From assembly GCA_018660465.1 (NCBI GenBank), contig JABJKH010000065.1, forward strand, positions 3,728-67,727: a stretch of DNA of 64,000 bases, written 5' to 3'. Every line of letters starts with the position of its first letter. Position 1 is the first letter of the stretch. Under the pieces are notes generated by a model that saw only the letters and a program-made list of their open reading frames with translations, did no database searches and was not told where the DNA came from. This DNA is from Rhodospirillaceae bacterium (GTDB lineage: Bacteria; Pseudomonadota; Alphaproteobacteria; Rhodospirillales; JABJKH01). This document shows positions 1 to 35,927 of this stretch, piece by piece. The translations under genes were made by a program, and so were the position numbers.

Positions 1-429
1 ATTCATTCCCATACTGGCGAAATTGAGGAGGCGCTCAGTCAACAAATCGGCTTAGTAGATCTCCGTTACGGCGACGCCAATAATCTCGAGTTCGACGATA
101 ACAGCCTCGACTGTATTTTCTCGATGAGCGTGATGGAGCACATTGCAGAAATTGAAGGCGCGGTTGAGAACGTAGCGCGGGTACTCAAGCCCGGTGGACA
201 TTTCATTGTTGGTTTTCCAATCGAAAATTTCGTCTCGAATGCCTTTCTCGATATGATAAAATTAATGATTGGCTTTGATCGCAAGGTGCATCACCCGACC
301 AATCATCACCAAATTCTAGCTGCCTTGGGCCTGCACTTAGAGCCTTTCCACGAACGTCCGTTCCCGTTTTCGGGATCAGTGGCATTCTCTCTCTATTACA
401 CAGGTATTTGGCGAAAACCGGAGAATTAA
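1..429 (+). CDS. Class I SAM-dependent methyltransferase, C-terminal part (5' end outside window)
   Basis: Frame 1 is open from nt 1 (IHSHTGEIEEALSQQIGLVDLRYGDANNLEFDDNSLDCIFSMSVMEHI...VLKPGGHFIV), which is the Methyltransf_11-type post-motif-I region. The ATG at 124 in the ORF track is internal. Stop TAA at 427-429. Confidence 0.8.
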   Translation: MHSHTGEIEEALSQQIGLVDLRYGDANNLEFDDNSLDCIFSMSVMEHIAEIEGAVENVARVLKPGGHFIVGFPIENFVSNAFLDMIKLMIGFDRKVHHPTNHHQILAALGLHLEPFHERPFPFSGSVAFSLYYTGIWRKPEN

Positions 430-433: not shown

Positions 434-1111
434 GTGCTTGATATTGTCGTTCCGACATTAAATGAAGAGGCGAATATTGACCAACTGGTAACGCGCCTAA
501 AGAATGCCTGTCCTGAGGCGCGGCTAATTTTTGTAGACAACTGCTCCACTGATCGCACGCTGGAAATCCTGGAAGGATACGGCGTTGACATCGTCCGCCA
601 TACTGTCAACGAAGGATATGGCAAAAGTCTTTATGACGGCATTATCGCTGGCACAGCGGATTATATTGTTACCATTGACGCCGACCTGGAATACCCCCCC
701 GAATGCATTCCTCAACTGATCGCCCGCCTGGATCAATGCTCGGTCGTTTACGGCTCTCGCTTCGCTGGTGATACTGATCCAGCAATGGGAGCCTTTCGTA
801 TCTACGGCAACCAATTAATTAGCTGGATATTCAACAAACTTTATGGCCAAGCGGTGAGCGACCTTTATACCGGTGTTAAGGCGTTTCGCCGGTCTGCCCT
901 CGACGGGCTTGAATTCCAATGTTCCGGGTTCGTCTTCGTTGTAGAGTTCGCGGCAAAATTGGTGAGATCCGGGTTCCGGCTTGAAGAAGAACCGGTCGAG
1001 TATACAATTCGCCGGGCCGGGCGTCGAAAAATGAAGCACGTCGCGGAAGCTTCAAAGGCACTCTCGTTGTTGTTGTTTTACCGAGTATCGCGGTTAAAAA
1101 TAAAGTCCTAA
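434..1111 (+). CDS. GT2-family glycosyltransferase, Dpm1/GtrB-core-like, no TM segment
   Basis: GTG start. GT-A signatures VVPTLNEEANI, FVDNCSTDRT and the DxD motif IDADLEYPP. Length 225 aa. Confidence 0.85.
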   Translation: MLDIVVPTLNEEANIDQLVTRLKNACPEARLIFVDNCSTDRTLEILEGYGVDIVRHTVNEGYGKSLYDGIIAGTADYIVTIDADLEYPPECIPQLIARLDQCSVVYGSRFAGDTDPAMGAFRIYGNQLISWIFNKLYGQAVSDLYTGVKAFRRSALDGLEFQCSGFVFVVEFAAKLVRSGFRLEEEPVEYTIRRAGRRKMKHVAEASKALSLLLFYRVSRLKIKS

Positions 1112-1115: not shown

Positions 1116-2573
1116 ATGAATTCACAGAATTTATCTGGCGTCATCCTTGCCGCTGGCAAAGGTACGCGCGCCTATCCCTATACCCAGCGCATTCCTAAGG
1201 CCATGCTTGATATTTGTGGCCGACCGTTGATCCAGTTTTCTCTGGAACTCATGCGCGATAAATTGGGGATCAAGGATATTGTCATCGTCGTTTCTGAAAA
1301 GAATGGCATGATTGAGCAACGGTTTGGCGATGGCCACGATCTTGGTCTCAACATTTGCTATCGCGTTAATGACGCTGTTGAAAAGGGGCCGGTTTATTCG
1401 CTGTCTTTGGCAGAGTCAAAAATATCGGCAGAGCGCTTCGTGGTGATGCTTTCTGACGAAATTTATCTGGATTCAAACCACGAAGCGATACTGGGCACAG
1501 ATTATAGAGACGAAGATATCCTGGTCACAGCGCGGCCCAATAGCTTGATCCGTGACATCAGCAAGAATTTTAGCATCGATTTCGTCGACGGACGCATTTC
1601 TCGCCTCATCGAGAAACCGACGAGTTCTGAGAATGGGCTGCTAGGCTGTGGCACCTACGTTTTCCGGCGCGATGTTTTTGATCAAATTCGTGAAGAATTT
1701 CGAACGCCTGGCCCGGCAACCGACAATCTGACTGCGTTTATTGCAAACCGTCTGGTTAACGGAGCAAAAGTTGGATATGTGCCTCTCGGTGGGAACTACA
1801 TTAACGTGAACTACCATCATGATGTTAATCGCGCGCGATCAATGGCCCGTACCGCAATGTTCGCCGATCCCAAAGTCAGCCTTATCATGCCCTGCCTCAG
1901 CGACAGCGCTGGATTCGAAGATGTGGTTCGAACCTCAATAGATGCCGGACGGGTCGATGAAGTGCTGTTGGTTGTTCACGAGCACACAAAAGAATTCGAC
2001 CGCGTCGCAAGCAAGTACGGCGCTAGACTAATCGTCGCGAAATCCGAATCCCGTGGGCTAGCGCCGCTGATCCGGACCGGTGTTCGGGAAAGCACCGGCG
2101 ACATCATTGCAGTCATGGCAGCCGATGGAACCTTTGAGATTGGCGATCTAGATAAACTGCTCGCTTATATTTACGACGCTGAAATGGTTGTCGGCACCAG
2201 AACTGCCCGGCAACTCATTGATCAGGGGTCGAACATGGATATTGTCGCCCGGCTGAGCAATTACTTCCTGGCCAAGTTCATTGAGGCCTTGTGGGTCACA
2301 CATCTGGTCCGGCTGTCGGACGTCGGCTGCGTCTGGCGGGTATTTTGGCGCTACAGCTACGATGCGGTCATCGACAGGGTTGATGCAGAACGAGGCGAGT
2401 TTTTGATCGACATGGTGATCGAAATGCTACTTTACAGGTTCCAATTGATCGAACTGCCGGTTCGCTACTGCATCAGCATTGACGAACAGGCGGTCCGGTT
2501 TCGCGAGCGGAATTTGGCGACGTTCTTCCGGATAATTAAACTAGCGCTGTCAAAACGGCTAAAAACGTTGTGA
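1116..2573 (+). CDS. Fusion protein: sugar-1-phosphate nucleotidylyltransferase (N-term) + GT2-like domain (C-term)
   Basis: N-terminal P-loop GVILAAGKGTRAYPYTQRIPKAML. C-terminal half reads VSLIMPC...IIAVMAADGTFEIGDL and is GT2-like, with AAD in the DxD position. It is a single uninterrupted 485-aa ORF. Confidence 0.75.
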   Translation: MNSQNLSGVILAAGKGTRAYPYTQRIPKAMLDICGRPLIQFSLELMRDKLGIKDIVIVVSEKNGMIEQRFGDGHDLGLNICYRVNDAVEKGPVYSLSLAESKISAERFVVMLSDEIYLDSNHEAILGTDYRDEDILVTARPNSLIRDISKNFSIDFVDGRISRLIEKPTSSENGLLGCGTYVFRRDVFDQIREEFRTPGPATDNLTAFIANRLVNGAKVGYVPLGGNYINVNYHHDVNRARSMARTAMFADPKVSLIMPCLSDSAGFEDVVRTSIDAGRVDEVLLVVHEHTKEFDRVASKYGARLIVAKSESRGLAPLIRTGVRESTGDIIAVMAADGTFEIGDLDKLLAYIYDAEMVVGTRTARQLIDQGSNMDIVARLSNYFLAKFIEALWVTHLVRLSDVGCVWRVFWRYSYDAVIDRVDAERGEFLIDMVIEMLLYRFQLIELPVRYCISIDEQAVRFRERNLATFFRIIKLALSKRLKTL

Positions 2574-2581
2574 GCTTTCAA

Positions 2582-4147
2582 CTATTTTGCGTTGACGCGG
2601 GCTGAGCGGCGCTCCAAAGCATCGTGCATACGGTGCTCCAGAACTGTCGTCATCTCTGTGCCCCCCTTTACATTGCGGTATGTCCGGATGATCCTCTTGG
2701 GAAACCGAGTATAGCCAACCAAATAATAGAGCATCGTACAAATTAGCCGGTAGAACGACAGCTCTTTTGGCCCGACACTTTGGTTGGTTTTTAAATGATT
2801 GAGCGAAACATAGTCGCCATAAATAGAGGTCAAAGACAGGAAGTACGAATCTGAAACAACGATGCGTTTCTCGGCAACGAGTTCACGAAAGAGTTCGGTC
2901 CCAGGATAGGCACAAAATAGCTGCATAGAAACTTCGTCAATGCCATGCCACGCGAGCTTCAGTCCGTAAGCCAACGTCCGATAGATATCTATCCTGGATT
3001 CTTTTGGCAGCCCAATCATCAAATTTGCTCGGGTAACGATGCCGATTTTCACCGCTGACATGATTGAACCTGTGAGGCGATCAAGATCGATCCGTTTCTT
3101 GATTCTCTCGAGCGTTCGCTTGGAACCACTTTCCGGAGCATAGACTAAGTAATTGCAGTTAATATCACGGAGTACACGCAACGTATCGTCATCCAGAGCC
3201 TCACTCCGGGTGCCTGACGGTAGCGACCATTTGACTGAGATTTTTTCTTCCGCTAGGCGCTTTCCAAACTCTATAATCCAGCGCTTCTTGGTGATCGCCG
3301 TCAGATCGTATAACTGCACTGCCGTGATATCATATTTCTCTATATGGGTCTTAAGTTCAGCAATAACGTCTTCGATGTCGCGCAGGATATAGCGTGTGGT
3401 CCACATTCCAGGATTGGAGCAGAAGGTACACTGGTACGGACACCCTCTGGAAATCATCATCGGCATATCCCGCTCGGTCATGACGCCGAAAGACTTACCC
3501 GTGGCCCAAAATTTCTCTAGGTAACCATCAGGCCAGTAAGGCCATGGAATAGCATCAACCTCCCGTATGCGATTTTGGCCAGTGTTTTCGACGTAATTTC
3601 CCTGCCCATCGAGAAAGCTGACGCCATTGACTTCATCGAAGCCCTGGCCATTTTCGATACATTCTAGAAGCTCGTAGAAGGTATGCTCGCCTTCGCCACG
3701 CACACAGACATTGATCGCCGGACAGTCCTTTAGACAATATTCGGACAGCGCGGTCACGTGTTCTCCACCGGCGACAATGGTGACATCAGGAAAGGCCTTG
3801 CGAATTGCCATGAGAAGGAGTTTTGCTGCGGGCCATTCACCAGAAAACATAGCTGAAAATGCAATAACATCTGTATTGGCAGGAATGCGCTCAATAATTT
3901 CTTCGAATTTCAGTCCCTGACAAACATGTGACGAAATCGTCTCCATAGGCCATACCCGGTTGAGCCCCTCAGCGACGCCGTCGACAAATGTAAAATCGTA
4001 GCCCTTGTTTTTGATATACGCTGAAAGATAAGCGAATGCGATGGCCGGTGTGGCCTCATTATTTATGGCTGTTTTGGTGTAAACGATTGGGCCTCGAACG
4101 AACGTCACAAACGTCTTCTTATTTGCGGTGGAGTTTTCACCCGTCAT
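2582..4147 (-). CDS. B12-binding-domain radical SAM protein (class B rSAM), paralog 1
   Basis: Cobalamin-binding-type segment VIAFSAMFSGEWP...IVAGGEHVTAL...VRGEGE, followed by the CxxxCxxC cluster motif SRGCPYQCTFCSNP. Hydrophobic C-terminal helix FYRLICTMLYYLVGY. Confidence 0.9.
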   Translation of the reverse strand: MTGENSTANKKTFVTFVRGPIVYTKTAINNEATPAIAFAYLSAYIKNKGYDFTFVDGVAEGLNRVWPMETISSHVCQGLKFEEIIERIPANTDVIAFSAMFSGEWPAAKLLLMAIRKAFPDVTIVAGGEHVTALSEYCLKDCPAINVCVRGEGEHTFYELLECIENGQGFDEVNGVSFLDGQGNYVENTGQNRIREVDAIPWPYWPDGYLEKFWATGKSFGVMTERDMPMMISRGCPYQCTFCSNPGMWTTRYILRDIEDVIAELKTHIEKYDITAVQLYDLTAITKKRWIIEFGKRLAEEKISVKWSLPSGTRSEALDDDTLRVLRDINCNYLVYAPESGSKRTLERIKKRIDLDRLTGSIMSAVKIGIVTRANLMIGLPKESRIDIYRTLAYGLKLAWHGIDEVSMQLFCAYPGTELFRELVAEKRIVVSDSYFLSLTSIYGDYVSLNHLKTNQSVGPKELSFYRLICTMLYYLVGYTRFPKRIIRTYRNVKGGTEMTTVLEHRMHDALERRSARVNAK

Positions 4148-4341
4148 AGCTATCCTTCAATTGTTGGTATGGAATATACAATCCAGGTCAAAAGCTTCAG
4201 CGTCTAAGGACACTTGTTATTTATGACTGCCAATAGCAAGATTAAAGGCGTACGTATAGCCAAATTTTTATTTTTACTCCCACATCCAGTATCGAAAGCA
4301 AAGTTCTGAACTCTAAAAATTTACATTATTCTGGTCTTGCA
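4148..4341. promoter_or_regulatory. AT-rich divergent intergenic region; must carry promoters for the rSAM gene (-) and the YfhO-like operon (+)
   Basis: 194-bp gap between divergently oriented start codons (4147 minus, 4342 plus), visibly AT-rich. I could not assign specific -35/-10 or operator motifs. Confidence 0.4.
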
Positions 4342-6417
4342 TTGATCAGTCTTTGGTTCGCTGCGGAATACATACTTTTGGGACCGGCTTCCGTGGTGCC
4401 AACATCAAGCAATGGTGAAATGCTTGTACCGGCACTGCTCAGCCAACAGTTCGCCGCAGACCAAGGTGCACTTTGGCAAAACCTTACAAGTACAGGTGCC
4501 GATAAGCTGGCCTTCACATATTACGGCACCATCGATAGCTTCCTGTTTTCCACATTACCGGGATGGCTCGCACACGCCATCAGGTCGTCTTCCGTAATTG
4601 TTGTGGCGGTTTTAAGCGCCTACGCCGTAGGTCGAAATATTCTTCAATTTTCAAGATCAGCGGCATTGTTTGTAGGAGCCGCATATGGCGTTGGTATAAT
4701 CGGTCAATTATTCGCGGGTTCCATCGGATATTTCCCGATCATTCTATTGGTCATTTATGGCGTGCTAGAGAACAGGACGAGTGCCGCCAGATGGGCGGTC
4801 CTTTTTGCTGTCCTCTATGCCTTTGCCGATATGACCTACTTTTCGCAGATGGTGCCTTGGTCGATGGCAACAATCGTTTTCTGGTTTTTATTCGTGACTC
4901 CCCGAAAAACCATCATTGATTGGGGAATTATTATAGCAGTCTGCCTAATTATGGTGGCATTGCGAGCCGATGACTTTGAAGCTCTTTTCGCCAATGCGCC
5001 GTTGTCGTTCATGGGTTTAGCACGGACCACCCCCGATTTAGGACAAGCTCTTTATGGTTCCATCCGATCTCTCTATCTATTCGGCGGACCCGTTCAAACC
5101 GCGTGTACCGCATTATTTTTAGTTAGTCTTGTCGCAAGACGGAACGACAAACTTCTATGGTCAGTAGGCGCCGCACTTCTAATCAGCATTTTTCTTTATC
5201 CGTTGGGTGTCGCGGTTCAGTCGTTCGCCGCCGAGATCTTGCCGTTTCTAAAAGGCTACTCAATGGATTACGCGGGTCGTATCGGCACAACAATTCTGCC
5301 GTTTGCCGCAGGGTTTGGAATTGATGTCTTGGTCAATAATCAGACGATTTCGAGAATTAATGTACCGCGTGGGATCCCCTTGATCGTGCGCCGGCTTGGG
5401 CTAACTCTTTGCATCAGTGCCATTGCATTTGTCTCGCTAAAAACAAAATATGTTAGTTTATACACGTGGGTAACCAACGGCAGCTTCGCCCATAACTTTC
5501 AAAGTCCAGTAATTGAAGAACTTGCCGACTCCATTCGAACCGAAAAAAAGCCTGTTCGTGTCGAAACATTTCAAATTATTCCCAACTACATGCACGCCTA
5601 CGGAATAGAAACCGCTGGCGGGTATCAGATTCTGCATTCACGACGATACTACGAATTTTGGGCTAAAATGGTTGAGCCCTGGGCCGCATCGCTTACGCCA
5701 GAAAGCCGGTTCTACAAACAATATGCTGACCGGCGCGCGCGAATGGAAGGAAACTTGGCCTTTCGCGATGATCGACTCTGGCTGTTTCCCGATACCTACC
5801 GTCCGACATGGCAGTTGGCCAATATCTACCGTCTCAATTTACTTTCTCTGGCCAACGTTGGCTATTTACTTTCGAGGGATCGCTTAACAGACTCGTCCTT
5901 AGTTCCAATCCGGAAAATGCCGCGACCGTGGTCAGCCATGAAAGCTCGTGAAAAGGCGTTAGAAAACATAAAAGCTAACTTTTATGGCCGCAGTTATTTT
6001 AATATTTATAAGAATACAACAGTAATTCCGCGCTTTTTCACGGTATCGGGCATCAATGTTGCAAACGGTGCTGATAACCTACTCAATGACATGTCGAAGG
6101 CTTCCGTCTCCCTGTTGCGCCAACAGGCATTCGTCTCTAAATTGGACCTTCCACGCGGGTTTGATTCGACCCAAACTTTTTCCCGCAGGCAGGTAACGGT
6201 TGAGCAATACGAAAAAGATCAAATCCGCCTGACATTGTCCAGCGGTGGACCAGCGCTTCTTATTGCAACGAACAGCTATTCACCATTCTGGACGGTTGAA
6301 ATCGACGGCGTGGAAAGTGAGATATTTCCGGCATATCATACTTTCTGGGGAGTTCAGATTCCGGCCGGTGCAAAATCTATCGTTTTTCGCTATCGCCCAC
6401 CTTATAAATTGAGTTAA
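4342..6417 (+). CDS. YfhO/DUF6044-like polytopic membrane protein (putative GT-C-type glycosyltransferase)
   Basis: TTG start. Many hydrophobic segments in the first ~380 aa, then a soluble C-terminal domain ending FWTVEIDGVESEIFPAYHTFWGVQIPAGAKSIVFRYRPPY. That ending matches the YfhO-family C-terminal pattern (W..x.DG....I..A...F.xV.xPAG....F.Y.P) as I recall it. Confidence 0.65.
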   Translation: MISLWFAAEYILLGPASVVPTSSNGEMLVPALLSQQFAADQGALWQNLTSTGADKLAFTYYGTIDSFLFSTLPGWLAHAIRSSSVIVVAVLSAYAVGRNILQFSRSAALFVGAAYGVGIIGQLFAGSIGYFPIILLVIYGVLENRTSAARWAVLFAVLYAFADMTYFSQMVPWSMATIVFWFLFVTPRKTIIDWGIIIAVCLIMVALRADDFEALFANAPLSFMGLARTTPDLGQALYGSIRSLYLFGGPVQTACTALFLVSLVARRNDKLLWSVGAALLISIFLYPLGVAVQSFAAEILPFLKGYSMDYAGRIGTTILPFAAGFGIDVLVNNQTISRINVPRGIPLIVRRLGLTLCISAIAFVSLKTKYVSLYTWVTNGSFAHNFQSPVIEELADSIRTEKKPVRVETFQIIPNYMHAYGIETAGGYQILHSRRYYEFWAKMVEPWAASLTPESRFYKQYADRRARMEGNLAFRDDRLWLFPDTYRPTWQLANIYRLNLLSLANVGYLLSRDRLTDSSLVPIRKMPRPWSAMKAREKALENIKANFYGRSYFNIYKNTTVIPRFFTVSGINVANGADNLLNDMSKASVSLLRQQAFVSKLDLPRGFDSTQTFSRRQVTVEQYEKDQIRLTLSSGGPALLIATNSYSPFWTVEIDGVESEIFPAYHTFWGVQIPAGAKSIVFRYRPPYKLS

Positions 6418-6464
6418 AAAACCATCCCTAATTGCTGTCCAAATAGGTTCATAAGAATAAACTC

Positions 6465-8015
6465 ATGTCGTTAGTTACACTGATACGTCCCCCGGTCTTG
6501 GTCGCTAAATGGGCGCACACAACTCCCACGTGCCCACCGATCGGCCTCGCCTATTTAGCGGCGGTGTTAATTGGAAATGACATAGCGGTTAACGTCGTCG
6601 ATGCAGTAGGCAATGCACCCGATCAAATGCTGCCCACGGATGACGAAAGATTCCTCTCTCACGGCCAATCAACCGAAGAAATTATTGAGGGAATCGATCC
6701 AGCAACTCAAATCATTGGCATTTCTTGTATGTTTTCACATGAATGGCCGCTGATCCGATCTTTAATTACGCGATTGAAGGAAGTTTTTCCTCAAATTTTA
6801 ATTGTCGGCGGTGGTGAGCATATAACGGCACTGCCAGAATTCTCTCTCGAGGATTGCGGAGCACTTGACGTTGGGATAATTGGCGAAGGTGAGGAAACAC
6901 TTACCGAGTTGGTTTCTGCGATACTCGAAAACCGACCCCTGGATGCAATAACCGGTATTGTTTATCGGAATAATGGGAGCATTCTTAAAACCGCGGCGCG
7001 CACTAGAATTCGTAATATTGATAACATCGCCCTTCCGGCCTGGGAGTTGTTTCCATTAGACACCTATTTGGATAACGGATATGGGTTCGGTGTCAATCGC
7101 GGGCGATCCATGCCAGTCCTGGCCACCCGCGGTTGCCCGTATCAGTGCACGTTCTGTTCCAACCCGACGATGTGGGGAACTCGGTGGGTTTCGCGTAGCC
7201 CTGAACAAGTGTTCGACGAAATGCTGCAATATCATAAGCGTTATCAAATTGATAACTTCGATTTCTACGACCTGACAGCAATCGTTAAGAAGAAGTGGAT
7301 CGTCGAATTTTGCCGGATGGTCATTGATTCAGGGGTTAAATTCACGTGGCAACTCCCGAGTGGCACCCGCTCGGAAGCGATTGACGAGGAGGTTTCCGAG
7401 CTTTTGTACCAATCCGGTTGCCGCAACATGAGCTACGCTCCCGAAAGTGGATCACCGAGCGTCTTGCTGCGTATTAAGAAAAAGATCGACCTCAAATCCA
7501 TGGAGGCTTCGATGAGAGACTCCATTAGAAATGGCATTAACTGCAAGGCCAACATCATCATTGGATTTCCCAACGAGACTCATAAGGAGATATTTCAAAC
7601 CCTATGGTTCTGCGTCCGAATGGCGGCGATTGGGATTCACGATGTGTCGCTTTCTCCATTTTCTCCATACCCCGGCTCAGAATTGTTCTCGAATATGCAA
7701 AATGACGGCCAAATTCCTGAGTATAGCGACGAATTCTTCTATGGATTGGCTGCATACACAGATTTGACAACAACCACGTCCTGTTCAAAATACGTCGGCG
7801 ACCGAGCGCTTGGATTTTATCGAATTTTCGGCATGCTCCTATTTTACGGCGTTCTTTATCTGTTACGGCCCTGGCGGCTGGTACGCACGCTTCGTAATGT
7901 CTTCGGTGAATTTCAGGAATCCCGCTTGGAAATGTCGCTTCGAGACCTTTACATTCGCTTGTGTAAATCCAAGGATTCTACGGTAGCTACCCCGGCTCGG
8001 AGTACACACAAATGA
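6465..8015 (+). CDS. B12-binding-domain radical SAM protein (class B rSAM), paralog 2
   Basis: IIGISCMFSHEWP...IVGGGEHITAL...IIGEGE, then TRGCPYQCTFCSNP (Cys codons at 7134, 7146, 7155). It aligns along its length with the 2582-4147 product. C-terminal helix FYRIFGMLLFYGVLY. Confidence 0.9.
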   Translation: MSLVTLIRPPVLVAKWAHTTPTCPPIGLAYLAAVLIGNDIAVNVVDAVGNAPDQMLPTDDERFLSHGQSTEEIIEGIDPATQIIGISCMFSHEWPLIRSLITRLKEVFPQILIVGGGEHITALPEFSLEDCGALDVGIIGEGEETLTELVSAILENRPLDAITGIVYRNNGSILKTAARTRIRNIDNIALPAWELFPLDTYLDNGYGFGVNRGRSMPVLATRGCPYQCTFCSNPTMWGTRWVSRSPEQVFDEMLQYHKRYQIDNFDFYDLTAIVKKKWIVEFCRMVIDSGVKFTWQLPSGTRSEAIDEEVSELLYQSGCRNMSYAPESGSPSVLLRIKKKIDLKSMEASMRDSIRNGINCKANIIIGFPNETHKEIFQTLWFCVRMAAIGIHDVSLSPFSPYPGSELFSNMQNDGQIPEYSDEFFYGLAAYTDLTTTTSCSKYVGDRALGFYRIFGMLLFYGVLYLLRPWRLVRTLRNVFGEFQESRLEMSLRDLYIRLCKSKDSTVATPARSTHK

Positions 8016-8923
8016 CAGCTTTGGTATCGGGCTCCTCCGGGTACCTCGGGTACAACCTAACGGCAAAATTAGTCGGCAGAGGTGAACCCGTCATTGCTGT
8101 CGTGCGTCCAACATCGAAAACTGCTCACTTGGCAGACCTTGGCGAAAACGTCCGTATTTATATCGACGATGGCTCGGCAGACGGTTTGGCCAGCGCATTC
8201 GAGGGCAATGACATTAGCGTTGTTTACCATCTAGCCGCTTGTCGACCCGAATATCTAGGACAAGAAGACACAATTGAAACGGTCGATGCAAATATTGGGT
8301 TTGGCACGCGACTCCTCCACGCCGCCGTTCGCGTGGGATGCCCGTCGTTCATTAATACGGGATCGTGGTGGCAATTTGAAGAGACCGGCGCGATTGCACC
8401 AAATTCGCTCTACGCTGCAACAAAGCAGGCATTCCAAGACATCCTATCGTTCTATGTTCAAACATCGGGCATTCGCGCAGTTTCCTTGATACCCTATGAC
8501 ATTTACGGACCGAACGACTGGCGAGGACGATTGACATCGGTCCTTTTGCGCGCCGCTAAGGGCGAACTGATTAAGATGACCCCAGGTGAACAAAAGATGG
8601 ATATTATTCACGTCTCGGATGTGACAGAAGCCTACATCTCAGCCTGCAAGCTTATGGATCAAAGACATATAGACGGGAATGGAGAACATTATTTTCTTGG
8701 ATCGGGGCACAGGCGAAGCTTAAAAGAAATCGCAAATATATTTGAGCAAGCATGGGAAAGCCCCCTAGCGATTAATTGGGGAGAACTACCGTACCGTGAA
8801 AACCAAGTATTTATGCCATGTCCGGCCAGCCCCACCTTGCCAACATGGAGACCTCAAATGTCACTGGACGACGGTTTCAAGGACCTGATCCAAAATGACC
8901 GTCTAGGTAAAACGGCGCAATGA
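8012..8923 (+). CDS. NAD-dependent epimerase/dehydratase-family (extended SDR) protein
   Basis: N-terminal LVSGSSGYLGYNL (GxxGxxG) and catalytic YAATKQAF (YxxxK). Its ATGA overlaps the upstream rSAM stop at 8012-8015. Confidence 0.85.
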   Translation: MTALVSGSSGYLGYNLTAKLVGRGEPVIAVVRPTSKTAHLADLGENVRIYIDDGSADGLASAFEGNDISVVYHLAACRPEYLGQEDTIETVDANIGFGTRLLHAAVRVGCPSFINTGSWWQFEETGAIAPNSLYAATKQAFQDILSFYVQTSGIRAVSLIPYDIYGPNDWRGRLTSVLLRAAKGELIKMTPGEQKMDIIHVSDVTEAYISACKLMDQRHIDGNGEHYFLGSGHRRSLKEIANIFEQAWESPLAINWGELPYRENQVFMPCPASPTLPTWRPQMSLDDGFKDLIQNDRLGKTAQ

Positions 8924-9894
8924 ACGAAAACAAACTTATCTCAATTGTCGTTCCAGTCTTCAATGAATCCGAAACCATCGACGCGTTTTTCGAGACACTT
9001 AACCCGGCCTTAGTGGGGCTTTCAAGCCGCTATAATTTTGAAATTATATTTACGGACAATCACAGCACAGACGATACATTTGAAAAGCTTGCTGATCGCG
9101 CAGCTCATGATAGCCGCGTACGGGTGATCCGTTTCTCGAGAAATTTTGGTTACCAACGGTCAATCCTTACCGCCTATACCAACGCCCGAGGTGCGGCGGC
9201 GATCCAGTTGGATTGCGATTTGCAAGATCCCCCTGCTTTGATCGAGCAATTCCTCGACCATTGGGAAGATGGCTACAAAGTCGTTTATGGCGTTCGGCGG
9301 TCGCGCAAGGAAGGCTGGTTGATTCGGTCAATCCGCCGCGTATTTTACCGTTTGGTGGACTGGCTGTCGGACATCGAATTGCCACATCACGCTGGCGACT
9401 TTCGCATCATTGATCGCCAGCTGCTTGATTTGTTGTCCGGTTCAATCGATTGCAATCCGTATCTACGCGGTATGATTTCCCGATACGGTTTTAAACAAAT
9501 CGGCATTCCATATGATCGGGACCCGCGAACTCAGGGAAAAAGCAAGTTTGGGCTGTCGGATTTGTTCACTGTTGCCCTTGACGGCATTGTCAGCCAATCG
9601 ACTGTGCCTCTTCGATTTGCAACCCATACTGGCCTTTTAATCGCCTTCGTCATGTTCGTGGCAATAATTGTGTACTCCGTTGGTCACGTATTTTTCGGTG
9701 CCACATGGCCGCCCGGTTTTGCCACCACGACCGTCCTTATTCTTTTTGGGATCAGCATCAACGCGATGTTTTTGGGAATAATAGGCGAATACATCGCACG
9801 TATTTATCAGCAATCTGTAAAAGACCGCATCACCATCGTGGAAAAAACTGTTCCAGAATCCGATGCTAAAATCGTCGTAACGCCCGGCAAATGA
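8920..9894 (+). CDS. GtrB/ArnC-like polyprenyl-phosphate glycosyltransferase (GT2 with C-terminal TM pair)
   Basis: ISIVVPVFNESETI, FTDNHSTDDT and DCDLQDPP, plus two C-terminal hydrophobic helices (LLIAFVMFVAIIVYSVGHVFF; TTTVLILFGISINAMFLGIIGEY). This is the typical bactoprenol-P sugar synthase architecture. Confidence 0.85.
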   Translation: MNENKLISIVVPVFNESETIDAFFETLNPALVGLSSRYNFEIIFTDNHSTDDTFEKLADRAAHDSRVRVIRFSRNFGYQRSILTAYTNARGAAAIQLDCDLQDPPALIEQFLDHWEDGYKVVYGVRRSRKEGWLIRSIRRVFYRLVDWLSDIELPHHAGDFRIIDRQLLDLLSGSIDCNPYLRGMISRYGFKQIGIPYDRDPRTQGKSKFGLSDLFTVALDGIVSQSTVPLRFATHTGLLIAFVMFVAIIVYSVGHVFFGATWPPGFATTTVLILFGISINAMFLGIIGEYIARIYQQSVKDRITIVEKTVPESDAKIVVTPGK

Positions 9895-10142
9895 TTTCCC
9901 GACCATCTCAGTCCAAATCAGAATTGGCGGCAACCAACAGTGATCAAGCACGGCTGAATAAGGCTTTAATCTGGAGCCTGTTTTTGGTTTTTGTAGGTAG
10001 CTTTGCCGTTCTCGTATTGGCGACTACTGCACCACTGTGGCTCGAACCCGCAGCAGAAGTCGACTTTTTGCGCAGTATAGGTAATTTAATACTGGATTTT
10101 TTAGAACGGTTTTACCACGAACCGGAAATGGATATCATTTAA
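9891..10142 (+). CDS. Small single-pass membrane protein, unknown function
   Basis: 4-nt overlap with the GtrB-like gene. One clear TM segment (ALIWSLFLVFVGSFAVLVLATTAPLWL). No recognisable family. Confidence 0.4.
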   Translation: MISRPSQSKSELAATNSDQARLNKALIWSLFLVFVGSFAVLVLATTAPLWLEPAAEVDFLRSIGNLILDFLERFYHEPEMDII

Positions 10143-10178
10143 GTGTAAGACCGTGGTTTCGGTCAGATTTGGTAAAAC

Positions 10179-11147
10179 TTAATTGAGTTCGTTAAAGTGG
10201 TTAATTGGAAGGCCCGCGCTACAGACATTTCTGTCCACATCGCGGTTTTGAAAAACCGCTAAATCCTTTTGATACTGTTCCAATAGTTGCGTTTGCAGAG
10301 CTGCTGCCTCCGTCGACTCACCACTACATAGAGCATCCGCCAAGGCCACAGCCTTCGGTGCTAAGCCTGCAACACGAAGCCGATGCACGAGCCACTCATT
10401 GAAATAAAGCGTCCTGTCTTCGACGATAGGCGGCAACAAGTCGGGAAATAGCCCATCTGGGTCATGAACAAGAATGTTAACCCCGTTTAGCCATCCGGCT
10501 TCCCACTTGGCTCTTTCTTCGGGCTCCATATTCGCGGGATGTGCCGGGCTGTAGGCTTCGAATACCATCTTGAAATCAGGATGGCTCAATAAGAAATCTC
10601 TAGTCGCCATACGGACATCGGGATAGTTCGCATCATCAATGACGATGACGGCCCGGTCGTGAAGATGGCGCTTCGCCAGGAGCAAGCAGACGAGTTGACT
10701 TCGATAGTCATGCGGGCCGTCGATGAGGTATAGGCCGACCTTGCGGTTGCCGATGTGGTCTTCCAGGGTTTCGAGGGCCGCCTCGAAATCCATGTTGATG
10801 AGTTTTGCATTTTTGGTTTTGAACGCGGTCATCCGGTCTTGAACGATGCTTAGGTTCTCATCGTTGGGATCAAGAATTCGAAAGTTATCGATGCCAAAAC
10901 AGGGCAGGTCCGGGGCATCGAGCGCGGTAGATACAAGAGTCAGACCTTGAAAGACACCAATTTCGAGGTAACAAGCTGTCTCGTCTGCTGACATCAATTG
11001 TGCCAAGCGCTGTAAGGCTCCCACTGTTTTTAAACCTGCAAGACCACTTAGGCCATCATCCCGATGATTGGATAGAAGACCCTGCTCTTCGGTCTCTTGA
11101 AGGGCGGTAAGGACATTTTCGAAATACTGCTTATCTGGCTTGGACAC
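10179..11147 (-). CDS. Class I SAM-dependent methyltransferase (Methyltransf_24/CmcI-TylF-like)
   Basis: Motif I-like YLEIGVFQGLTL and LYLIDGPHDY...VIVIDDANYP, typical of this O-methyltransferase subgroup. 322 aa, with a ~100-aa C-terminal extension. Confidence 0.65.
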   Translation of the reverse strand: MSKPDKQYFENVLTALQETEEQGLLSNHRDDGLSGLAGLKTVGALQRLAQLMSADETACYLEIGVFQGLTLVSTALDAPDLPCFGIDNFRILDPNDENLSIVQDRMTAFKTKNAKLINMDFEAALETLEDHIGNRKVGLYLIDGPHDYRSQLVCLLLAKRHLHDRAVIVIDDANYPDVRMATRDFLLSHPDFKMVFEAYSPAHPANMEPEERAKWEAGWLNGVNILVHDPDGLFPDLLPPIVEDRTLYFNEWLVHRLRVAGLAPKAVALADALCSGESTEAAALQTQLLEQYQKDLAVFQNRDVDRNVCSAGLPINHFNELN

Positions 11148-15049: not shown

Positions 15050-15439
15050 ATGAGCGCACACCGCCAGACTGACAGAGCCTTCGGTATTATGTTTGCCGTG
15101 GTTTTTTCCATTGTCTTTGCCATTGCGCACTTCGGTTTTGCTGTTCGCTTGGACTGGGCGTTATGGGTGGCAGGTGGTTTTTTGGTCCTCGCGCTCCTGG
15201 TCCCTTGGCTGCTGATGCCGTTAAACAGACTTTGGGAAAAGTTTGCGTTTCGTCTCGGCTTTGTCAGCAACCACCTCCTGCTGGGCGCTTTCTTTTTCCT
15301 TTTTGTTTTCCCAATTAGCCTTATGCTCCGCGTCTTCGGTTCCGATCCGATGCATCGGAAGTTCGAGCCAAAATCAGACACGTATTGGTCCAAGGTCACC
15401 CGTCACACGAACCGGGAGACCTTTGGTGATATGTTTTAG
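15050..15439 (+). CDS. SxtJ-like small membrane protein
   Basis: 129 aa with three hydrophobic segments and a C-terminal ...LMLRVFGSDPMHRKFEPKSDTYWSKV...GDMF. This matches my recollection of the SxtJ family that accompanies carbamoyltransferases. Confidence 0.65.
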   Translation: MSAHRQTDRAFGIMFAVVFSIVFAIAHFGFAVRLDWALWVAGGFLVLALLVPWLLMPLNRLWEKFAFRLGFVSNHLLLGAFFFLFVFPISLMLRVFGSDPMHRKFEPKSDTYWSKVTRHTNRETFGDMF

Positions 15440-15452
15440 ACGGAATTAATCT

Positions 15453-15605
15453 ATGCTCTCAGTCTTCGGCCAACTTATTAAGTTTATGCGCGTCTATAAG
15501 AAATTCTGGATGGCGCCGCTTATTTTTGGGCTGGTCGCCCTCGGCGGTCTGTTAATCGCCGCCCAAAGCACCGCCATCGCTCCCTTTATTTATATGATTT
15601 TCTAG
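15453..15605 (+). CDS. DUF5989 / SxtK-like 50-aa membrane peptide (not in supplied ORF track)
   Basis: Manual translation: MLSVFGQLIKFMRVYKKFWMAPLIFGLVALGGLLIAAQSTAIAPFIYMIF*. It has a basic KKFW segment, a single TM and the family-typical C-terminal APFIY-x-x-F. It lies between the SxtJ-like gene and the carbamoyltransferase. Confidence 0.65.
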   Translation: MLSVFGQLIKFMRVYKKFWMAPLIFGLVALGGLLIAAQSTAIAPFIYMIF

Positions 15606-15617
15606 GCGCATCTCACC

Positions 15618-17411
15618 TTGATCGTTCTCGGCATTTCAGCATTTTACCATGACAGCGCCGCGGCCCTGGTCCGCGACGGTGAAATTGTTGCGGCCGCACA
15701 GGAAGAGCGCTTCACGCGAAAGAAAAATGATTCTGAATTTCCCGCAAATGCCATCGCCTATTGCTTGAACGAAGCTGGCGTTACGCTTGATGACGTCGAC
15801 TATGTTGGATTTTACGATAAGCCGTTGCTGACCTTTAACAGGCTATTAGAGACTTATCTTTCTTTTGCACCCCGAGGATTGCCGTCATTTGTTAAGGCGA
15901 TCCCGGTTTGGGTTAAAGAAAAAATTCTTCAAAAAAATCTGATTTTGAAAGGCGTTAATGGGCTTGATCTCGGAACAACCGACGAAGATAAAATCCTGTT
16001 CGGGTTTCACCATCATTCCCATGCCGCCAGTGCCTTCTACCCGTCGCCCTTTGATGAGGCGGCAATTCTGATTATGGATGGCGTCGGAGAATGGGCGACA
16101 ACGTCCACAGGCATCGGCAAGGGCAATGATGTTACCTTGGAAAAAGAAATTCGTTTTCCTCATTCCCTGGGAATGCTGTATTCCGCATTTACCTCTTATC
16201 TAGGTTTTAAAATCAACGATGGCGAATACAAGGTCATGGGACTGGCCCCCTATGGGGAGCCGAAATACGTTGATGTGATGCGGGACAATCTAATCGATTT
16301 CAAAGATGACGGCTCGTTTCGCCTGAACATGGATTATTTTAATTATTGCATCGGCCTGACCATGACCAATAGCAAGTTTGCCGACTTGCTTGGCGGGCCT
16401 ACCAAACATCCGGCCCAGCCCATGACCCAGCGCGATATGGACATCGCCCGCTCGGTTCAGGTGATAACAGAGGAGGCTGTTTTAAATCTTTGTCGCGGCT
16501 TGCAAAAAGAAACCGGGCAAAAAAATTTATGCATGGCGGGGGGCGTTGCGCTCAACTGTGTCGCAAATGGTAGATTATTACGTGAAGGGCCGTTTGAGAA
16601 TATTTGGATACAACCTGCAGCAGGCGATGCCGGCGCATCATTAGGTGTCGCTTTGGCGATTTCCCATAGTCAAGGTGGCGTTGACCGAAAACCCGCAAAC
16701 GGGTCTAGAGACGCCATGCAAGGATCCTATTTAGGGCCCGCCTACGCCGAGGATACTGTTAAGGAAATCTTGGATACGGCCGGTGCAAACTATGACATCT
16801 TGGAAGATGCGGAATTGTTTAAAAATGTCGCCGAGGTATTGGCGGACGAAAAGGTTGTCGGCTGGTTTCAAGGGCGGACAGAGTTTGGTCCAAGGGCGCT
16901 CGGCAACCGGTCCATTCTGGGTGACCCCCGTTCCGAACGCATGCAGCGGATGCTTAATCTCAAGATAAAATACCGGGAAAGTTTTAGGCCCTTTGCACCA
17001 GCAGTTTTGCGCGAAGACGTTTCAGAATTTTTCGACCTAGATGGTGACAGCCCCTACATGCTGCTGGTCGCGCAAGTGAAAGACAAATTACACCAAGACC
17101 TATCTGAAGCAGAGGCTGCGCTAAAAGGCTTAGATAAACTCTATGCCGTTCGCAGCACGGTCCCCGCCATTACCCATGTCGATTATTCAGCCCGCATCCA
17201 AACAGTTCACACCGATACCAACCCGCGCTTCCATAAATTACTTGAAACGTTCAAGGAACAATCCGGCAATGGGATGTTGGTAAACACCAGCTTTAATGTC
17301 CGCGATGAGCCAATCGTCTGTTCGCCAGAGGATGCGTATCGGTGTTTCATGGCCACCGAAATGGACATGCTTGTGCTGGGCAACGTGGTCCTGTTGAAGG
17401 AGAACCAGTGA
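15618..17411 (+). CDS. NodU/CmcH-family carbamoyltransferase
   Basis: N-terminal MIVLGISAFYHDSAAALVRDGEIVAAAQEERFTRKK, then ...GGVALNCVANG...NTSFNVRDEPIV. 597 aa. TTG start. Confidence 0.9.
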   Translation: MIVLGISAFYHDSAAALVRDGEIVAAAQEERFTRKKNDSEFPANAIAYCLNEAGVTLDDVDYVGFYDKPLLTFNRLLETYLSFAPRGLPSFVKAIPVWVKEKILQKNLILKGVNGLDLGTTDEDKILFGFHHHSHAASAFYPSPFDEAAILIMDGVGEWATTSTGIGKGNDVTLEKEIRFPHSLGMLYSAFTSYLGFKINDGEYKVMGLAPYGEPKYVDVMRDNLIDFKDDGSFRLNMDYFNYCIGLTMTNSKFADLLGGPTKHPAQPMTQRDMDIARSVQVITEEAVLNLCRGLQKETGQKNLCMAGGVALNCVANGRLLREGPFENIWIQPAAGDAGASLGVALAISHSQGGVDRKPANGSRDAMQGSYLGPAYAEDTVKEILDTAGANYDILEDAELFKNVAEVLADEKVVGWFQGRTEFGPRALGNRSILGDPRSERMQRMLNLKIKYRESFRPFAPAVLREDVSEFFDLDGDSPYMLLVAQVKDKLHQDLSEAEAALKGLDKLYAVRSTVPAITHVDYSARIQTVHTDTNPRFHKLLETFKEQSGNGMLVNTSFNVRDEPIVCSPEDAYRCFMATEMDMLVLGNVVLLKENQ

Positions 17412-26510: not shown

Positions 26511-27579
26511 CACCCTCTCAACATTTGCCGATGTAAGTGTAGTAATCCCTGCGTTTAATGCGCGGGAAACAATCTCGCGTGCGCTACGCAGCGTTGCAGA
26601 ACAGACCCTAAAGCCACGAGAAGTTATCGTTGTTGACGACGGGTCGACCGATAACACTTTGGAGACGGCACGGAAATTTGAGTCACAAATGAAAGACATC
26701 TCTCTAATCGTCATCAAGCAGGAGAATAAAGGTGCCGGTGCTGCCCGCAATCGAGCGCTCAAAGAATCTTCGCAACCGATTATTGCGTTCCTTGATGCAG
26801 ATGATGAATGGTTCCCTAAAAAACTGGAACGCAGTCTTCATCACATGGATTCGGGGAACTACAAACTCGTCGCTCATAATGGATATATCGTTGAAGGGGG
26901 ACAGGAATCGGTCATTGATTGTGCAGCGCGATACAATGAAGGCTCGTCTCCCTACGTTTCTCTGTACCGGAAGGGGTATATTGATACGTGTACCGTCGTC
27001 GTAAAGAAAGATTTGCTCACCGCGAACGGGGGGTTTGATGAGAGCCTGCCAAATGCTCAAGATTTTGATATGTGGCTTGCGGTCCTTAAAGACGGAAAGG
27101 CAGATTTCCTAGTGTTTGATGAGGTTCTCTCCAAGTACTATGTAACGCCGGGTAGCATCATGAGTCATACTGAAAGGCGTTTGGCCTGTTGCCTTGAAAT
27201 TGCCCAACGCTATGCCGCTGACTTGGCCATTTTCACGAAAAAACCAATACTTAGCCTATGGTTCCGGGTCCTTGCCATTTATATGGAGACGGCACAGGCC
27301 TATCGCGCTCAGTTCAAGTTACCTCAAATGGTCGGGGTCATGTTTCGATTGCCCGTAGGTCTATTCATAGCGACGCTGGAATTTAAATTTGAACCTCGGC
27401 CCCCCCGCGTTAGTCACCTGGTTAGCAGCTCTGAATTTTCAACCAACAACAACCACACGGGTCAGCACCACGTTATTTTTATAACCCTTTATATTTGGGT
27501 CTTTGTAATTTTGATCGCTTATCTTTACCAGTTTCGCGCGTTCTCGCGACCGATCTTTAATATTTTAGGCTTAAATTAG
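26488..27579 (+). CDS. GT2-family glycosyltransferase with hydrophobic C-terminus
   Basis: VSVVIPAFNARETI, VVDDGSTDNT and LDADDEW (DxD). C-terminal TM (HHVIFITLYIWVFVILIAYLY). Confidence 0.85.
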   Translation: MTLPKPPDTLSTFADVSVVIPAFNARETISRALRSVAEQTLKPREVIVVDDGSTDNTLETARKFESQMKDISLIVIKQENKGAGAARNRALKESSQPIIAFLDADDEWFPKKLERSLHHMDSGNYKLVAHNGYIVEGGQESVIDCAARYNEGSSPYVSLYRKGYIDTCTVVVKKDLLTANGGFDESLPNAQDFDMWLAVLKDGKADFLVFDEVLSKYYVTPGSIMSHTERRLACCLEIAQRYAADLAIFTKKPILSLWFRVLAIYMETAQAYRAQFKLPQMVGVMFRLPVGLFIATLEFKFEPRPPRVSHLVSSSEFSTNNNHTGQHHVIFITLYIWVFVILIAYLYQFRAFSRPIFNILGLN

Positions 27580-29465: not shown

Positions 29466-29527
29466 TTGCACTTTTGTGAATTACCGAATAGAAACTGTTG
29501 AGTTCCCGGAATTAATTAAGCTGAACA

Positions 29528-30244: not shown

Positions 30245-30272
30245 TGACGCGGCTTAAAGTATAGATTGTTTA

Positions 30273-31019: not shown

Positions 31020-31052
31020 TTATCGAGCCATTATTAATAACTGCCCCTATTC

Positions 31053-32318: not shown

Positions 32319-32321
32319 ATC

Positions 32322-33740: not shown

Positions 33741-33815
33741 ATTGGAAACCTAGCACACAACGGGCATAGTCAGCCGTATCTCATCATTCGCCGAGATATG
33801 TCGGGAAATCTCATG

Positions 33816-34049: not shown

Positions 34050-34249
34050 TTTAATCAAAAGTTGGGATTTAATTTTACAATTAACCATAGTGGAAACCGT
34101 TCTTCCATCGCGAAGATGCTTCAAGCCTATTCGACAAAGAACATTTACTGGTTGCGCCCCAATATAACAAGCGGCATTTCTGAGGCGCTTATATCCTCCC
34201 AGGTGCTACCTATTCGTGTCCCCTAAATTTCTAACTCCAAGAACTTTCA

Positions 34250-35833: not shown

Positions 35834-35927
35834 TTCGCCGTGAAGACAGGCATTTTTCTATTTTACCCCGAATATGATAAGTTTTACGTCCTTCGGTTTT
35901 TAAGGTCTTTCCGAATTTCATGCCCCT

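Follow-up and report, generated by a model that had tools for sequence, protein, structure and literature searches.

Uncharacterised class B radical SAM enzymes encoded beside GtrB/GT-C-type surface-glycan genes may tailor a sugar in glycan decoration

We analysed a stretch of 64,000 nucleotides (the window) from a Rhodospirillaceae bacterium (GenBank assembly GCA_018660465.1, contig JABJKH010000065.1, positions 3,728 to 67,727 of the forward strand), which encodes two proteins of the class B radical S-adenosylmethionine (SAM) type, here called rSAM-A and rSAM-B. Relatives of these proteins are repeatedly encoded next to family 2 glycosyltransferases (GT2s) of the polyprenyl-phosphate type, short-chain dehydrogenases/reductases (SDRs) and membrane glycosyltransferases of the GT-C fold. 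The enzyme class and the glycosylation machinery are each already known; the recurrent combination of the two is new. We tentatively propose that rSAM-A and rSAM-B provide an accessory sugar-tailoring step, most probably C-methylation, in extracytoplasmic glycan decoration of the GtrB/GT-C type, a reading to which we give appreciable though not preponderant credence. The two genes are as follows.

2582..4147, minus strand: rSAM-A, class B radical SAM enzyme (B12-binding plus radical SAM), 521 amino acids; convergent with the module A genes described below and divergent from the YfhO-like gene.
6465..8015, plus strand: rSAM-B, class B radical SAM enzyme, 516 amino acids; starts 47 bp 3' of the GT-C gene and is the first of four translationally coupled genes.

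Both open reading frames (ORFs) lie where an earlier note on this DNA had placed them, and the motifs that it quoted were all found at matching positions in the two copies, including the C-terminal FYR...RNV. The Pfam B12-binding domain was matched at 53.6 bits in rSAM-A and 59.8 bits in rSAM-B (cut-off 32.1), and Radical_SAM at 57.8 and 59.3 bits, respectively (cut-off 29.5). The CxxxCxxC motif occupies residues 236-243 of rSAM-A, and C-PYQ-C-TF-C showed no variation in 67 family members. Conserved motifs specific to the family are MFSxEWP, GGEH, GEGE, PSGTRSE, APESGS and YR...RPWR...RN. We scored both proteins against the NCBIfam equivalog or subfamily models for HpnJ, HpnR, BchE, PhpK, KedN5, BzaD, ApyD, Sden_1168, the ladderane-type radical SAM enzyme, the TsrM-type enzymes and AprD4. 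Neither protein reached the curated cut-off of any of these models, the equivalog scores falling 3-10 fold below. The best scores were those for Sden_1168 (150 bits; cut-off 575), ApyD (153 bits, with rSAM-B; cut-off 750) and BchE (140 bits; cut-off 481), while HpnJ gave 135-141 bits (cut-off 577.6), HpnR 74-82 (650), the ladderane-type model 59-91 (360) and the AprD4 family (NF033070) 62-66 (500). Membership in any of the named class B families tested was ruled out by these cut-offs. Neither copy was placed in a clade with an assigned function; the earlier note had said that a placement among enzymes of unrelated function would undo its hypothesis. This comparison covered the NCBIfam models named above.

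An AlphaFold2 model of rSAM-B (pLDDT 91.6), searched against the PDB with Foldseek, best matched TsrM, AprD4, MgmA, CysS, OxsB and TokK, at 15-19% identity, TM-scores of 0.59-0.67 and E-values from 1e-18 to 3e-23. Profile searches against solved class B-type enzymes gave E-values of 1e-13 to 2e-23. The class B enzymes TsrM, TokK, CysS, MgmA and OxsB, together with the related AprD4, have the same N-terminal Rossmann-like B12 domain, partial TIM barrel with CxxxCxxC and C-terminal helical domain. The rSAM family differs from them in its low identity, in its own motifs and in its context, which is surface-glycan assembly, whereas theirs are antibiotic, cofactor or RiPP (ribosomally synthesised and post-translationally modified peptide) pathways. 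Judged by sequence and predicted fold, both proteins are genuine radical SAM enzymes of the class B type, belong to a clade that is still uncharacterised, and are predicted to use cobalamin.

The top match of the radical SAM half (profile positions 221-425) was the sugar diol dehydratase AprD4 (E 2e-23), which also gave the highest target TM-score, 0.75. This match favours an alternative that deserves serious attention although we consider it rather unlikely, in which the enzymes would act in the same glycan context without methylating: a radical 1,2-elimination or oxidation of the sugar would be followed by reduction of the ketone by the linked SDR, giving a deoxy or epimerised sugar. Models for such chemistry are diol dehydration as in AprD4, deamination as in DesII and alcohol oxidation as in BtrN, and AprD4 illustrates that a similar architecture can operate without a methyl-transfer role for B12. 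However, the AprD4 model scored far below its cut-off, and only the radical SAM half of our proteins aligns with the AprD4 structure (6fd2). For the N-terminal domain, the best alignments are not to the N-terminus of AprD4 but to the cobalamin domains of TokK, CysS and TsrM, all of them genuine cobalamin binders.

rSAM-A and rSAM-B are collinear nearly end to end, with 188/485 identical residues (39%; BLASTP E 4e-124). Codon-aligned nucleotide identity was 48%, and third codon positions matched at just 39% of the residues that are identical in the two proteins, so that synonymous sites are saturated. Over GCPYQCTFCSNP, 8 of the 12 codons differ between the copies and every difference is synonymous; the codon count reported earlier is therefore exact, although the string listed first there is that of the plus-strand copy. 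Homologs of rSAM-B number in the thousands, and the best 120 (52-100% identical) come from Proteobacteria, Rokubacteria, Acidobacteria, Actinobacteria, Planctomycetes and Desulfobacteria. rSAM-A has a separate homolog set, 54-100% identical. Against proteins from other phyla either copy reaches 54-82% identity, compared with 38-42% against the subfamily of the opposite copy, and joint alignments showed 50-80% identity inside each subfamily with about 65-80 columns invariant across both. Since identity within each set across phyla is far above that between the sets, the alignments indicate that the duplication is older than the spread of both subfamilies across phyla. The ancient duplication proposed in the earlier note is thus borne out, both by the saturated synonymous sites and by the separate cross-phylum subfamilies.

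We then compared gene neighbourhoods in 79 loci from species-representative genomes, 80 loci from metagenomes and a further 12 contigs (loci are identified below by L numbers). Immediate neighbours in the 79 species-representative loci comprised 139 genes, 69 upstream and 70 downstream. Extended SDRs made up 17 of these (13 upstream, 4 downstream), and 10 upstream neighbours matched adh_short, a count that may overlap with the 13 upstream extended SDRs. There were 15 GT2s (12 upstream, 3 downstream), about 12 members of the GT-C families PMT_2, PMT or DUF6044 (4 upstream, 8 downstream) and 17 further radical SAM proteins (4 upstream, 13 downstream), with DegT found once upstream and twice downstream. 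In the same 79 loci, GT2 density fell from 0.63 per 10 kb at 0-1.5 kb from the rSAM gene to 0.08 at 7.5-10 kb, and SDR density from 0.58 to 0.04 per 10 kb over the same distances. Among 63 large proteins (at least 7 transmembrane helices) encoded within 6 kb of the rSAM genes there were 8 PMT_2, 3 PMT, 6 YfhO and 3 DUF6044 matches, counted per family so that one protein may count more than once. The earlier note had made its hypothesis depend on conservation of the YfhO/GtrB-type linkage, and GT2, SDR and GT-C partners indeed recur across phyla, fading with distance from the rSAM gene.

The SDR, as the commonest immediate neighbour by its upstream count, could also speak for the non-methylating chemistry, as could the sharp distance dependence of its adjacency and its translational coupling to rSAM-B in the window. 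DegT genes lie directly beside orthologs in L004, L169 and L121, and this adjacency recalls the DesI/DesII pairing. The window SDR, on the other hand, resembles ordinary GalE-type 4-epimerases and could just supply the nucleotide sugar, as PgfE may in the Pgf system.

Among rSAM-B orthologs that are 63-100% identical, the linkage held throughout: in 7/7 contexts a GT2, a GT-C or large membrane protein, or both kinds, are encoded next to the rSAM. Gene orders in these contexts were as follows.

Window: YfhO, rSAM, SDR, GtrB.
L004: rSAM, DegT, NTP-transferase, 4,6-dehydratase, SDR (49% identical), GtrB (68%).
L005: C-methyltransferase, YfhO-like (41%), DUF6044, rSAM.
L084: GT2, SDR, 542-residue protein with 8 transmembrane helices, 70-residue protein, rSAM; a compact module among unrelated metabolic genes.
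L169: DUF6044, rSAM, DegT, NTP-transferase, SDR.
L170: PMT_2, AsnB, rSAM, GT2, SDR, PMT_2.
P0010 contig: SDR, GT2, GtrA, rSAM, 517-residue protein.

A YfhO/DUF6044 gene lies directly 5' of the rSAM gene in three of these lineages (the window, L005 and L169). Flippase-like genes were also seen in relatives: GtrA_DPMS_TM adjoins the rSAM gene on the P0010 contig, and an EamA-like protein of 116 residues is encoded in L087. Subfamily A showed comparable arrangements, with a 560-residue membrane protein followed by a GT2 and then the rSAM in L002, and a 534-residue protein, the EamA-like protein, the rSAM and a GT2 in L087. In view of these neighbourhoods we consider it very unlikely that the rSAM genes have no functional link to their neighbours, merely residing in mosaic glycan islands while their products have some unrelated substrate, for example a peptide or a cofactor. 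The top NCBIfam score of rSAM-B, to the RiPP enzyme ApyD, would fit such a situation, as would the variation in context and the sizeable share of loci without recognisable partners. Against it stand the strong distance dependence of the enrichment, the translational coupling of rSAM-B to the SDR and GtrB genes, the compact five-gene module of L084 and the linkage in every close-ortholog context. Moreover, no precursor-peptide-like or RiPP partner families were found among the neighbours.

The window contains two adjacent modules, each with its own rSAM. Module A comprises rSAM-A and the following genes.

1..429, plus strand: class I SAM-dependent methyltransferase, 3' part, the gene being truncated by the beginning of the window (reading frame 1 open from base 1); heads module A.
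434..1111, plus strand: soluble GT2 of the dolichyl-phosphate (Dol-P)/polyprenyl-phosphate hexose synthase type (AglJ/DPM/PpgS-like), 225 amino acids; Pfam Glycos_transf_2, 100 bits.
1116..2573, plus strand: sugar-1-phosphate nucleotidylyltransferase/GT2 fusion, 485 amino acids; Pfam NTP_transferase at residues 8-227 and Glycos_transf_2 at 255-367.

This module is conserved gene for gene in a Magnetococcus metagenome-assembled genome (MAG; L086), at 56, 55, 48 and 57% identity for the methyltransferase, the GT2, the fusion protein and rSAM-A, respectively. The methyltransferase fragment aligns with residues 82-223 of the enzyme that heads the Magnetococcus block, the GT2 ortholog occupies the equivalent position, and the ortholog of the fusion protein (490 residues) is encoded directly 5' of the rSAM-A ortholog. 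The GT2 has no transmembrane segment, and its NCBIfam scores (AglJ 108, DPhHxTase 80 and PpgS 72 bits) are each below cut-off. Because module A is syntenic as a unit in Magnetococcus, rSAM-A belongs to it and not to a bracket around the YfhO-like gene. The earlier description of the rSAM pair as bracketing that gene as a unit was not upheld, since the exact bracket was not found elsewhere; a second family member lies within 10 kb in 6/79 loci.

Module B is an operon of the YfhO-like, rSAM-B, SDR and GtrB genes. Besides rSAM-B, the features in and around it are the following.

4148..4341, no strand: AT-rich divergent intergenic region of 194 bp between rSAM-A and the YfhO-like gene; putative promoter region for both, as suggested by gene geometry only.
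4342..6417, plus strand: YfhO/DUF6044-type glycosyltransferase of predicted GT-C fold, 691 amino acids, assigned by Pfam and structure prediction.
8012..8923, plus strand: extended SDR (NAD-dependent epimerase/dehydratase family), 303 amino acids; ATGA overlap with rSAM-B; Pfam Epimerase, 107 bits.
8920..9894, plus strand: GtrB/ArnC-type polyisoprenyl-phosphate glycosyltransferase, 324 amino acids; ATGA overlap with the SDR gene; two C-terminal transmembrane helices.
9891..10142, plus strand: protein of 83 amino acids with a single transmembrane helix; ATGA overlap with the GtrB gene; no Pfam match and not GtrA-like.

The ATGA overlaps at 8012-8015, 8920-8923 and 9891-9894 make rSAM-B, the SDR, the GtrB-type GT2 and the 83-residue protein one translationally coupled unit, so that the coupling noted earlier for rSAM-B, SDR and GtrB extends one gene further. 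Scans of 2400-10400 for consensus promoters and terminators gave nothing above the shuffled background, and no cobalamin riboswitch or other Rfam element was found in the 64-kb window. The SDR, which carries GxxGxxG and YxxxK motifs, has GalE-type UDP-glucose 4-epimerases as its best relatives in the PDB (E 6e-14), and its 49% identical ortholog adjoins the GtrB ortholog in L004. The GtrB-type enzyme matched Synechocystis GtrB (5eke) at E 4e-58 over residues 7-302 and ArnC at E 2e-33; its transmembrane segments lie at about 229-257 and 271-289, and its NCBIfam scores remained below cut-off for both PgfS (206 bits; cut-off 500) and ArnC (127; 529).

Residues 1-380 of the 691-residue protein contain about 8 transmembrane helices, and a beta-rich periplasmic domain comes after them. 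Pfam YfhO (PF09586) was matched at 36.4 bits (cut-off 28.5) by the last 80 residues only (model positions 746-827 of 835), and DUF6044 at 19.7 bits over the transmembrane region, below its cut-off of 27. In a Foldseek search with its AlphaFold2 model (pLDDT 82.9), every match with E below 0.01 was a GT-C enzyme; these included AftD (the top match, 4e-8), AftA, PglB, the EmbA-EmbB complex, the yeast oligosaccharyltransferase (OST) complex (6ezn_F) and the A. fulgidus oligosaccharyltransferase. The definition of GT-C enzymes includes a conserved acidic residue or DXD-like motif in an extracytoplasmic loop (PMC5836110). Across 13 homologs, the stretch that follows the first helix has an invariant G52 and D54, and the residue of the distant L169 homolog that aligns with the conserved Asp is also Asp. 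The designation as a YfhO-like membrane glycosyltransferase is thus backed by the predicted structure as far as the GT-C fold is concerned, while the Pfam YfhO match itself is confined to the C-terminus. The protein is rare, with 14 detectable homologs.

How these proteins might work together can be set out for module B. The SDR would supply or adjust a nucleotide sugar, and the GtrB-type enzyme would load the sugar onto polyprenyl phosphate. rSAM-B would take a hydrogen atom from the sugar and modify an unactivated carbon, most probably by cobalamin-mediated C-methylation, acting either on the lipid-linked sugar at the cytoplasmic face or on the nucleotide sugar just before loading. The carrier would then be flipped, and the YfhO/DUF6044 GT-C enzyme would move the tailored sugar onto the surface glycan. 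rSAM-A would do the equivalent job in module A, together with the methyltransferase, the small GT2 and the NTP-transferase/GT2 fusion. The domains, folds, operon coupling, ancient paralogy, absence from named families and recurrent gene linkage are shown by the data, whereas we infer the substrate, the stage of modification and the chemistry. We rank C-methylation as the likeliest chemistry, since the majority of class B enzymes carry a methylase annotation (PMC13459092). With regard to the radical sugar tailoring hypothesised in the earlier note, the linkage to polyprenyl-phosphate-type GT2, SDR and GT-C genes does recur, while C-methylation enters as a prior expectation only.

Several observations weigh against this proposal. 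No characterised homolog appears to fix the substrate or the chemistry, and the radical SAM half is closest in sequence to AprD4, a non-methylating diol dehydratase. The rSAM-B orthologs of L004 and L169 head operons with DegT, NTP-transferase and 4,6-dehydratase genes, and such operons would fit a nucleotide-sugar substrate at least as well as a lipid-linked one. In 47/79 loci, tblastn detected no GT2 and no window-like SDR up to 3 kb from the rSAM gene, and in L083 the neighbourhood of a close subfamily-A ortholog includes aminosugar genes but lacks both GT2 and GT-C. A GT-C signature could not be recognised in many of the large membrane neighbours: those of 506-560 residues in L086, L084, L087 and L002 gave no signal against a YfhO-like profile in hhalign (E 0.05-0.8), and the L002 protein showed only a sub-threshold, Alg9-like GT-C match. 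The window has no GtrA-type flippase, and the C-terminal helix of the rSAMs is not clearly membrane-inserting. Finally, orthologs of the YfhO-like protein (57% and 34% identical) occur in clusters without a B12-type radical SAM gene; these clusters carry SDRs and fusions of a GT2 with a methyltransferase, and the one in L085 has a TylC3-type C-methyltransferase as well. The rSAM would therefore be an optional accessory and not an obligate partner of the GT-C enzyme.

A more specific form of the sugar-tailoring proposal is possible but doubtful: the clade may constitute a so far unrecognised fourth component of the GtrB/GT-C three-component systems. It would act directly on monosaccharides linked to polyprenyl phosphate, functionalising C-H bonds by radical chemistry (C-methylation or deoxygenation) ahead of flipping and transfer. 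If so, many environmental bacteria would display C-branched or otherwise radical-tailored sugars made on a lipid carrier, and multiple or iterative modifications would come from clusters in which as many as five paralogs stand in tandem.

The C-terminal helix and the basic tail that follows it are kept family-wide, with the consensus YR..GML.FY...YL.RPWR..RT.RN. The Kyte-Doolittle mean of the helix over 19 residues was 1.69 in rSAM-B and below 1.43 in rSAM-A; the family median was 1.17, 5/67 members reached 1.6, and an invariant Arg lies inside the helix. A role as a transmembrane anchor was not supported, the hydrophobicity being too low in most members. The membrane association that the earlier note read into this helix is thus not convincing in the sense of an anchor, given the modest hydrophobicity and the invariant Arg, and the helix is more likely to be a substrate-binding or interfacial element. 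In GrsA and GrsB, class B enzymes that act on lipids, a C-terminal helix has been proposed to bind the substrate (PMC13459092).

The conserved hydrophobic and aromatic character of this helix, followed by a basic stretch, raises the prospect that the substrate is itself a membrane lipid or the polyprenyl carrier, which would undergo methylation, cyclisation or cross-linking as with GrsA/B, Gmm or HpnP/HpnR. We regard this as improbable. It would accord with the LPG_synthase_TM genes in L001 and L083, and with the range of taxa in which the family is found (Acidobacteriota, Binatia, Planctomycetota and Myxococcota), a range that overlaps with producers of unusual lipids. However, the 25 commonest neighbour families, which comprise SDRs, GT2s, GT-C enzymes, DegT and methyltransferases, contained no lipid or isoprenoid biosynthesis family; the scores for HpnR and for the ladderane-type enzyme were far below cut-off; and the closest orthologs lie inside nucleotide-sugar operons.

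Radical SAM chemistry on lipid-anchored hexoses does have precedents, namely HpnJ, which is proposed to form the hopanoid cyclitol ether from bacteriohopanetetrol (BHT)-glucosamine, and Cds, the calditol synthase; for both, the proposed substrate is a hexose that a membrane lipid already carries (PMC13459092). By comparison, one could imagine that the rSAMs contract the ring of a lipid-linked hexose, in the way suggested for these two enzymes, so that a cyclitol or carbasugar head group results, and HpnJ was among the best partial family matches. In hopanoid clusters, HpnJ is also accompanied by a GT2 and an SDR (HpnI/HpnB and HpnA). Still, we consider this chemistry highly improbable here. 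The score reached a quarter of the HpnJ cut-off, and Sden_1168, ApyD and BchE scored equally well, which makes the HpnJ match generic. Polyprenyl phosphate that bore a carbocycle in place of the sugar would cease to serve the GT-C enzyme as a glycosyl donor, and, unlike the situation for HpnJ and Cds, there are no hopanoid or archaeal lipid genes near the window rSAMs.

The remaining machinery of module B follows known multi-component transmembrane glycosylation systems. In CsbB-YfhO, GtrA/GtrB/GtrC, ArnC-ArnT and Pgf (PgfS/PgfE/PgfM1/PgfM2), as in the window, a GtrB-type glycosyltransferase, which in the window has two C-terminal transmembrane helices, accompanies a GT-C enzyme, here of the YfhO type. 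The csbB-yfhO operon follows this logic, a polyprenyl-phosphate glycosyltransferase being encoded with a YfhO-type GT-C enzyme (PMC5836110). The four-gene pgf locus includes an SDR epimerase (10.1101/2022.10.10.511621), and to that extent it resembles the window operon with its gene of the SDR epimerase family. The window operon differs in that a class B radical SAM gene is inserted, that the window has no recognisable GtrA flippase, and that its YfhO-like protein is a rare and divergent DUF6044-like variant. In the papers found on the known systems, a radical SAM component is nowhere mentioned.

Radical SAM enzymes that tailor sugars at unactivated carbons are well known, for example the C-methylases GenK/GenD1 and the DesI/DesII system. 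As in the aminoglycoside and deoxysugar pathways of GenK/GenD1, AprD4/AprD3 and DesI/DesII, DegT, oxidoreductase and SDR genes accompany the radical SAM gene in our loci. Those enzymes, however, act on soluble pseudo-oligosaccharides or TDP-sugars and belong to antibiotic clusters, whereas the partners of the rSAMs are polyprenyl-phosphate GT2s and envelope GT-C enzymes. In the full-text literature covered, which leaves most subscription papers outside so that absence is not proof, we found no paper that ties a radical SAM enzyme to GtrB, YfhO or GT-C systems; this agrees with the earlier statement that no characterised class B radical SAM enzyme is known in a route from undecaprenyl-phosphate sugars to GT-C enzymes. 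A 2026 review of lipid-modifying radical SAM enzymes gives HpnJ and Cds as the sole cases acting on lipid-anchored sugars, and contains neither the word polyprenyl nor undecaprenyl (PMC13459092).

If the sugar-tailoring proposal holds, a function would be assigned to a large unannotated class B clade found in Acidobacteriota, Binatia, Myxococcota, Planctomycetota, Cyanobacteria, Alphaproteobacteria and others. Carriers of the family include the culturable Spirulina sp. CCY15215 and 06S082 and Minicystis rosea DSM 24000, besides Magnetospirillum and Magnetococcus MAGs. Decoration by polyprenyl-phosphate GT2s and GT-C enzymes is a major source of surface-antigen diversity, with effects on O-antigen conversion, on the glycosylation of teichoic acid and proteins, and on resistance to polymyxin (ArnC/ArnT). 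To our knowledge, the only modifications that the sugar undergoes at the lipid-linked stage of such routes are of the kind of DprE1/E2 epimerisation and ArnD deformylation, to which a radical SAM/B12 step would add C-H functionalisation. The compact modules, such as L084 and the window operon, are small enough to be reconstituted, which makes the question directly testable.

Further observations concern the family and its neighbourhoods. Tandem paralogs occur, with five consecutive same-strand copies in a Binataceae MAG (L052, 8383-16601) and three in L041 (8418-13245); arrays were also seen in L039, L053, L067 and L076. This suggests that the window pair is a mild case of a general tendency of the family to multiply, and that tandem arrays would carry out multi-site or iterative modification. 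The only other co-occurrence of A-type and B-type copies was found on a marine metagenome contig (Ga0114932_10000075; L121, 986-11557), where they lie 7.5 kb apart in a cluster of the B-type copy, a third distinct B12-type radical SAM gene, a PhyH dioxygenase, a SPASM radical SAM gene, a methyltransferase, DegT and the A-type copy. Often a second B12-type radical SAM gene (rSAM2), whose product is only distantly related to the window proteins (50-120 bits), lies directly downstream of the family gene, at about 0.1-1.5 kb, as in L006-L008, L049, L056, L059, L060, L065, L068, L076 and L078; an SDR gene is frequently found upstream in divergent orientation. The resulting conserved triad of SDR, rSAM and rSAM2 was observed in Deltaproteobacteria/Myxococcota (including Minicystis rosea), Thermodesulfobacteriota and Binatia, while the Acidobacteriota and Rokubacteria loci L006-L008 have the downstream rSAM2 only, with no SDR match.

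Orthologs of the YfhO-like protein are encoded beside TylC3-type NDP-hexose C-methyltransferases (Methyltransf_13/14) in L085 (6294-12133) and L005 (10-3307). Whether or not a radical SAM enzyme is present, the YfhO-like GT-C lineage may in general deal with sugars that are methylated or methyl-branched. Small ORFs of 67-83 residues lie beside the GtrB gene or a large membrane protein in the window (9891-10142), L084 (9573-9785) and L085 (12157-12360). They share no detectable sequence similarity, and a single transmembrane helix was seen for the window protein only; a shared role would be a guess.

The window as a whole is a large surface-glycan island with GT2s, Wzy_C, a second pair of PMT_2 and GT2, ManC, AsnB-type enzymes and a carbamoyltransferase. 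The second GT-C and small GT2 pair (27579-30244) consists of a PMT_2 protein (628 residues, about 12 transmembrane helices) followed by a GT2 of 238 residues, which is 31% identical to the GT2 of 434-1111, and has no rSAM. Across 28000-36000, which covers the PMT_2, GT2, methyltransferase, Wzy_C and sulfatase-like genes, the G+C fraction is 0.41-0.47 compared with 0.50-0.56 on either side, which suggests that this part of the glycan island is mosaic or was acquired laterally. At 15050-17411, an SxtJ-family membrane protein (129 residues, 3 transmembrane helices) is encoded upstream of a 597-residue carbamoyltransferase, a pairing known from saxitoxin clusters; its presence in a glycan island suggests that a sugar is O-carbamoylated. 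The minus strand also has a very long ORF, with 1619 residues, at 49268-54127.

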